Of a DNA stretch of 64,000 bases, positions 55,363-56,254 are shown in pieces. The stretch lies in NCBI RefSeq assembly GCF_056712565.1, contig NZ_CM160072.1, one strand, 5' to 3'. Made by a program: the position numbers and the translations under genes. Within the stretch, counting starts at the first letter, position 1. The number at the start of each line of letters is the position of its first letter. The notes beneath the pieces are model-generated. The model was not told the DNA's origin, did no database searches, and saw only the letters and a list, made by a program, of their open reading frames with translations.

Positions 55363-55698
55363 AACAGACTACCTGAAGGGAGCCGCGGTCGCCTGGCAGT
55401 TGCAGTAGCAGGAGATCATCCAGCCGCAGTACAGGTCACGATGACTCTGGTTAATGATACCGGCTTTGACCCCGTATTTTCCGGCTCTATCGCTGAATCA
55501 TGGCGTCAGCAGCCGTGCACACCATCCTATTGTTGTGACTGGGAGGCTGCCACCATGCTTCGCGCTTTCCCTCTGGCGAAAAAGGGAGAAGGACGGGCCC
55601 GTCTGCCTTCACTTTATGCCAGCTTCGGTAAGCTGGGTGAGACACCGACTCATGAAGATATCATTGATAACAATCGATCCATCAACTGGCCTGTATAA
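55363..55698 (+). pseudogene. yjhV: 3' fragment of an NAD(P)-binding oxidoreductase-like gene
   Basis: ORF continues out of the IS911 end (...VAVAGDHPAAVQVTMTLVNDTGFDPVFSGSIAESW...) with no upstream part. Confidence 0.4.
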
Positions 55699-56254
55699 CG
55701 TGGCTGCCGGTGATTAAGAAAGCTGCACCTACCTAAGTAGTAGCAAACGCACACTTTTTAGAAAAATCGATGGTCAGAAACTGGATTAGCAATTCCGTTC
55801 CAGGGTTGCTTTTGATTTACGTTGGCGTCTGATCATTGATTTATCCTCAAAAGCCCAACCTCATTGGTAATGAACCAGCTCCGTGAATGTCCGCTCTGGC
55901 ACAGAGCGAAATTTTTTGATCTCCCCCCTGAAATCTAAACTTAGTCATGTCACGTTTTTGGGTTTCTAAAATTTTAACTTCGCGTTTTTCGTTGCCGTAA
56001 GGGTTATACAGAAATGTCCGTTAAGCAGAGTTCAAAATTGATTGCCGTGATCACGACTGGTTTGAAAGCCGCGCCCAAGCCTGTACAGCTCTGGTTTGCG
56101 TTGATTATGAACCTGTCAGCCTAAAGCAAGCGGATGGACGATGAGTATTGGTAATCTTTCAGAGTCCGGAAAAGTTCAGCCCCAGTCTGAACAGGCTTGC
56201 TGGCGCCAGTCCAGTTTCATTCAGTCGTGGTTTGGTTCTTACGGCCTGTGCAAT

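Follow-up and report, generated by a model that had tools for sequence, protein, structure and literature searches.

Between a truncated IS911 element and the 3′ end of fecE, positions 55363-56254 hold the tail of an oxidoreductase-type gene and a non-coding spacer. Coordinates refer to the window, the whole stretch of 64,000 nucleotides that was analysed. The window belongs to an E. coli chromosome, in the KpLE2/leuX island region, and 24 kb of it is 100% identical to several complete genomes. The annotation of MG1655 (NC_000913.3) maps onto the window at a constant offset and assigns 55369-55698 to the pseudogene yjhV (b4286; K-12 positions 4509804-4510133), directly 3′ of IS911B-1; the stretch is 100% identical in the K-12 derivatives DH1 and W3110. 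The region 55363-56254 is already annotated, its gene tail being the K-12 pseudogene yjhV, and it is biologically ordinary and already known. The features are collected in the table below.

The IS911 remnant corresponds to IS911B-1, whose end at position 6802 of the K-12 locus falls at window position 55366, with ...GGCCAGTTTTAGTTGACCACAACA as its last bases. PGAP labels the remnant an 'IS3-like element ISEc52/IS911 family transposase', frameshifted and with its N-terminus missing. In the KpLE2 element at leuX of K-12, yjhV has the same sequence and the same place after IS911B-1, 556 bp from the fecE stop; the fragment shows no difference, and the sole departure lies to its left, where K-12 has IS30D and the window has two IS911 copies enclosing an intact IS600 and a BCCT transporter. 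This segment of the window (49623-55366), absent from K-12, resembles a composite transposon, with the two IS911 copies around a piece of a DUF2254 gene, the transporter gene, which is intact and of the BCCT family (51200-53203, minus strand, 667 aa), and the complete IS600.

Table. Features from the IS911 remnant to fecE, in window coordinates.
Feature	Position	Strand	Remarks
Truncated IS911 (IS911B-1 of K-12)	54523-55366	+	Right end at 55366 is the yjhV truncation point
yjhV pseudogene (b4286)	55367-55698	+	2 nt of codon 139, codons 140-248 and stop of a 248-codon F420_oxidored-type gene
Native 3′ flank of the Klebsiella-type oxidoreductase gene	55699-55908	+	210 bp; ends in a hairpin (55892-55908), then a T-run
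Orphan AT-rich segment	55909-56030	.	122 bp, GC 0.37
ISNCY (ISKpn21-like) transposase remnant	56031-56105	+	About 25 codons (residues 147-171) around the DHDWFE motif
fecE 3′ flank shared with divergent plasmid fec loci	56099-56254	-	156 bp, unusually conserved
fecE, last gene of fecABCDE	56255-57022	-	From the ORF list and the annotation of identical genomes

The yjhV fragment and its parent family

An ORF of 137 codons runs out of the truncated IS911, from an ATG at 55285 to a stop at 55696-55698, with an in-frame stop upstream at 55264-55266. As far as its 27th codon the ORF lies within IS911, in a frame that is not that of the transposase, and from 55367 on it is homologous to the C-terminal end of NAD(P)-binding proteins of 248 residues. 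The preliminary description of this DNA, made from the letters alone, had seen here an ORF encoding only a C-terminal segment, and it was right: the homologous part covers residues 140-248 of the 248-residue family. PGAP instead calls an 85-codon CDS (WP_000177057.1, 55441-55698) that starts at an ATG at 55441, under the name 'hypothetical protein' or 'NAD(P)-binding domain-containing protein'.

The tblastn search against oxidoreductases that had been proposed as a check recovers residues 141-248 of a plasmid-borne Pantoea homologue (WP_033768704) at 80% amino acid identity and E=9e-59. Closer relatives occur in Raoultella and Klebsiella. The 332 nucleotides of the fragment are identical, without exception, to the 3′ end of an intact gene at a Klebsiella locus (L023, 10416-10747), and all 109 C-terminal residues are shared exactly with the Klebsiella protein P0303, which this gene encodes; the match is far beyond chance. 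At the junction 55366|55367, the window has ...GACCACAACA|GACTACCTGAAGG where Klebsiella has ...GGACTGGGACTACCTGAAGG. The break is sharp; it follows the first base of codon 139 and coincides exactly with the end of IS911. The window has no full ORF of ~248 codons with a start of its own, as homology sets in only within codon 139. Neither tblastn on the window nor a search of 5426 complete E. coli genomes at the sensitivity of blastn recovers the missing N-terminal half or the neighbouring HxlR gene, so truncation came before the fragment's entry into E. coli or its fixation there.

The parent proteins form a very large family of essentially uniform length, with at least 6523 relatives at E<=1e-30, almost all of 248 aa. 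In a full-length relative, Pfam places the Rossmann domain with its GxGxxG motif (PF03807, F420_oxidored) at residues 2-93, and solved FNO-like and STEAP-like structures align to full-length relatives at residues 4-190. It follows that the fragment is devoid of the dinucleotide-binding domain and begins inside the fold. Accordingly, PF03807 is not found in the fragment, for which Pfam returns only a sub-threshold DRL_cat match. The preliminary wording, an 'NAD(P)-binding-protein-like segment', thus describes the family correctly, but the segment does not include the NAD(P)-binding domain.

An exhaustive search of 1.84 billion representatives yields 596 that match the fragment at E<=1e-3, and the full-length ones align over about residues 140-248. 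Short matches consist of E. coli ORF calls, pieces at contig ends, pieces with internal starts, and degenerate or frameshifted genes. A stand-alone family of complete proteins of about 85-140 aa across diverse organisms, the finding that would have spoken against a gene fragment, was not recovered in these searches. In two independent metagenome assemblies (L008, 666-1413, and L009, 198-945), the homologous gene is split by a mid-gene frameshift into overlapping ORFs of 112 and 143 aa, yielding another ORF call that is C-terminal only.

The fragment is homologous, at residues 140-248, to 248-residue PF03807/COG2085 proteins described as 'NADPH-dependent F420 reductase'-like, from which it differs in missing the Rossmann domain, the start codon, the promoter and the HxlR partner. 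The parent family is an F420 reductase in name only and not a demonstrated one: against the NpdG equivalog model (TIGR01915), the full-length Pantoea relative scores 33.6 bits with a cut-off of 149.8, and the fragment gives no match. In its native context, in Klebsiella, K. grimontii/oxytoca, Raoultella, Pectobacterium and Pantoea, the gene lies beside a divergent HxlR-family regulator, with no fec genes nearby.

Composition of the spacer

The spacer (55699-56254) measures 556 bp, ends at the fecE stop, and has longest stop-to-stop frames of 27-57 codons across the six frames, in keeping with the roughly 550 bp without ORFs reported earlier. Pfam matches neither of two ATG-started ORFs (36 and 41 codons), and these are not kept as frames in other fec lineages. 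An Rfam 15 scan of 54400-57100 at E<=1 returns a plant miRNA model as its sole match (E=0.77, far under the gathering score), and one promoter-like site is found where about one is expected by chance. Similarity searches show the spacer to be a mosaic of four pieces.

The first piece, 55699-55908, is 89.7% identical to Klebsiella L023 10748-10959, immediately beyond the intact gene, and 76% identical to a Raoultella terrigena locus (L007) up to 55882. Homology to the Klebsiella flank stops at about 55908. A terminator-like consensus pattern, CGCTCTGGCACAGAGCG followed by AAATTTTTTG, occupies 55892-55917 on the plus strand, and its T-run lies past the point where Klebsiella homology stops. Together with ~210 bp at the start of the spacer, the fragment is a single colinear piece of Klebsiella-type chromosome.

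A 41-bp stretch that bears the hairpin (window 55876-55914) recurs with 85% identity after an acetyltransferase gene at the same Klebsiella locus (L045, 976-1016), and looks like a small repeated extragenic palindrome. In Klebsiella loci L021-L026 and L045-L048, a P4-like satellite island begins where homology to the E. coli spacer ends, at the equivalent of ~55908 and ~960 bp downstream of the start of the oxidoreductase gene; its cargo includes a Phage_GPA primase, AbiJ and a large NERD-domain protein. The arrangement points to a hotspot of recombination or integration directly beyond the hairpin of the gene.

The AT-rich segment that follows has no match beyond fec-linked copies among plasmids, E. 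coli genomes and the fetched Klebsiella, Raoultella, Pantoea and Pectobacterium loci. The third piece resembles ISKpn21 transposase genes, with 80% blastn identity over 79 bp to copies on more than 1000 plasmids; tblastn gives 68-71% amino acid identity (E=2e-5 against the whole window), and 54% for a second ISNCY transposase. Of the transposase gene (~450-470 codons in full), no other part is detectable in the window, nor are terminal repeats. Compared with ISKpn21 and other ISNCY elements, the window keeps only ~75-80 bp, devoid of an intact ORF or ends, making it a remnant and not an element.

An ISNCY element with an internal deletion, spanning all of the fecE-proximal region, was also considered, based on a likeness between the transposase C-terminus 'NPEEFRASLKR' and the window's 'SPEKFSPSLNR'. 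This idea was rejected as unsupported. The C-terminal match reaches an E of only 0.001-0.2 in tiny databases, ISKpn21 continues for ~0.8 kb beyond its transposase, and the flank shared by three fec lineages starts 7 bp before the end of the ISNCY match. A protein search with a pseudo-translation of 56022-56254 returned spurious E. coli ORFs only.

The last piece lies directly downstream of fecE. Homology to two divergent plasmid fec loci, one from K. variicola (L010, 5001-5155) and one from Salmonella (L049, 4012-4166), starts at 56099 and runs into fecE. Between the fec lineages, three sub-blocks of this flank are 84%, 78-80% and 70-77% identical. For fecE in the same lineages, identity is 82% at the protein level, 55% at third codon positions and 43% at fourfold-degenerate sites. 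The 156 bp beside fecE are more conserved than neutral DNA should be and look constrained; the ~550 bp are therefore not necessarily all inert.

In each of the three lineages, a different IS directly abuts the shared flank. The IS-bounded fec modules of Klebsiella and Salmonella plasmids have the same ~156 bp after fecE and then an IS; their fecE is ~78% identical, and in place of yjhV and the ISNCY piece they carry an element of the IS5 or IS3 family. A third plasmid fec group (fecE 75% identical) has no flank homology. The folding of 56099-56254 on the minus strand is not more stable than that of shuffled sequences (z = +0.8), and RNAalifold on both strands of the three sequences gives no net covariation. 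No frame is open in all three lineages, substitutions are not 3-periodic, and no consensus terminator lies close to the stop codon on the fecE strand. A 20-mer from the conserved flank searched against genome contigs gave one chance match, in an Oceanospirillales MAG, with no further similarity.

Linkage to the fec module

The fecE gene is present in 2749 of 5426 complete E. coli genomes, and the 892-bp region is found at >=99% identity in 2736 genomes, with nearly full coverage in 2676. The exact FecE protein occurs in 10 distinct contexts, all 10 of which have the 85-codon yjhV ORF at the same distance. The DNA beyond the block varies and includes IS30, IS600, a group II intron, IS110 and a dpd island. 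This comparison of fec flanks across strains and plasmids, which the preliminary description had proposed, identifies the block as a fixed appendage of the E. coli-type fec module and not as debris of this strain's local IS cluster. The earlier reading of the region as debris from the rearrangements that brought fec next to the IS cluster is essentially right, a truncated oxidoreductase gene and non-coding debris of IS-mediated rearrangement being what is found. It is refined by this fixed attachment to fec, by the Klebsiella-type origin of the gene tail with its flank, and by the constrained look of the last 156 bp.

Pan-genome and association studies of mastitis E. coli report that yjhV co-segregates with fecIRABCDE (PMC5885034, PMC11390585, PMC7750360). 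The association of yjhV with mastitis arises because yjhV is physically linked to fec, and this linkage explains it fully. The fragment is a passive marker of the E. coli-type fec module, and should be read neither as a virulence gene nor as the 'NAD(P)-binding domain-containing protein' of PGAP. Literature on yjhW and on descriptions of the fec flank added nothing to this picture.

Origin of the block and alternative readings

We consider it very probable that the region is inert rearrangement debris hitch-hiking with the ferric-citrate uptake module. Insertion of IS911 usually duplicates 3 bp of the target. No matching duplication is seen at the other IS911 end, which fits an adjacent deletion or inter-IS recombination better than simple insertion. 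Anatomy and junctions are direct observations, from which we infer an order of events and a donor replicon. The Klebsiella-type gene tail with its flank, the ISNCY remnant and the fec operon would have been joined by IS-mediated events, with IS911 then setting the outer boundary. The mosaic was probably built once, by IS activity in the donor replicon, before fec spread in E. coli, and may since have been copied passively along with fec. The 100% identity to the Klebsiella chromosomal gene and the ISNCY remnant show a Klebsiella-type character for at least part of the DNA that accompanies fec in E. coli. The yjhV fragment would yield no working enzyme; for fec itself, the one part likely to matter would be the 156 bp nearest fecE, which may form the transcript's 3′ end.

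That yjhV instead encodes a functional truncated protein (the 85-aa CDS or the 137-aa ORF), expressed from a promoter borne by or adjacent to IS911 and contributing to a fec-associated phenotype, appears highly improbable. Points in its favour are the PGAP call of WP_000177057.1 as a CDS, a constitutive promoter listed by genomic SELEX for the insM/yjhV spacer (PMC3946193), a cross-linking mass-spectrometry preprint that names YjhV as a partner of AceF, and the statistical association with mastitis strains. Neither the cross-link listing nor the promoter listing shows a function for YjhV, however, and fec linkage accounts for the mastitis association. The frame also runs over 109 codons with no stop or frameshift, but this is uninformative because the DNA is undiverged from the Klebsiella gene and has had no time to decay. 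The protein would start inside an FNO-like fold, bereft of the Rossmann domain, no coherent stand-alone family of such size exists among its relatives, and the K-12 curators mark yjhV as a pseudogene. A different history would make the intact oxidoreductase gene the original neighbour of fec in a Klebsiella-like donor, later cut by IS911, with the spacer as old native intergenic DNA. A 2925-bp Logan contig (L019, from SRR31535658) has such a layout, with HxlR, the full 248-codon gene, the 556-bp spacer, fecE and fecD, and is 100% identical to window 55486-57572. This contig is itself mosaic, however: all 8 of its differences from the window fall in 55371-55485 and none in the next 2087 bp, its 5′ part is that of K. 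grimontii-type contigs, and sister contigs end at the window equivalent of 55709. Outside Logan short-read assemblies its protein (P0179) does not occur, and in all finished contexts, from Klebsiella, Raoultella, Pectobacterium and Pantoea, the gene has no fec beside it. A native spacer is also at odds with the foreign ISNCY fragment that it contains and with the end of Klebsiella flank homology at ~55908. We regard this history as quite improbable. As an ancestral arrangement, L019 was rejected; it was probably assembled as a k-mer chimera from mixed reads of E. coli and the K. oxytoca complex, and may instead be a natural recombinant for which yjhV served as the patch of homology.

A third alternative concerns 56099-56254 alone, which could be a functional fec element under purifying selection and not debris. 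Candidate roles include a 3′ UTR or processing product, a terminator region, a 3′-derived small RNA, a protein-binding or recombination site, or a cis site for expression or mobility. Flank identity of 77-84% is kept in three fec lineages (the E. coli type, L010 and L049) despite saturated synonymous sites in fecE, and the ISs in all three end just outside the flank, as if closer insertions were not tolerated. Set against this are the lack of an Rfam match, of unusual fold stability, of covariation, of a near terminator on the fecE strand and of a shared open frame, as well as the third plasmid fec group, whose flank is not homologous. Such a function is unlikely overall, and the conserved flank offers a small testable lead for fec mRNA biology. 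For the region as a whole, passive debris carried along with fec is the reading that we prefer.

The exceptions to the linkage between yjhV and fec are secondary events. In the O55:H7 strain DEC5A (L012, 3733-5000), an IS3-family element 172 bp from fecE has removed yjhV and much the greater part of the spacer, by an insertion or deletion that reaches 56083, and the fec module directly adjoins a tRNA-Leu-associated integrase. In strain 09A19CPO009 (L003, 5977-6010), IS911 has lost its body and all that lay within, through 7 bp of microhomology (ACCTGAA) shared by the left inverted repeat and yjhV; 31 bp of that repeat remain, fused to 55371, next to a dpd (7-deazaguanine DNA modification) island. 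At four other loci, L002 (E. coli 2779, 3920-5428), L035, L037 and L044, a group II intron encoding an ltrA reverse transcriptase/maturase sits inside the IS911 remnant beside yjhV.
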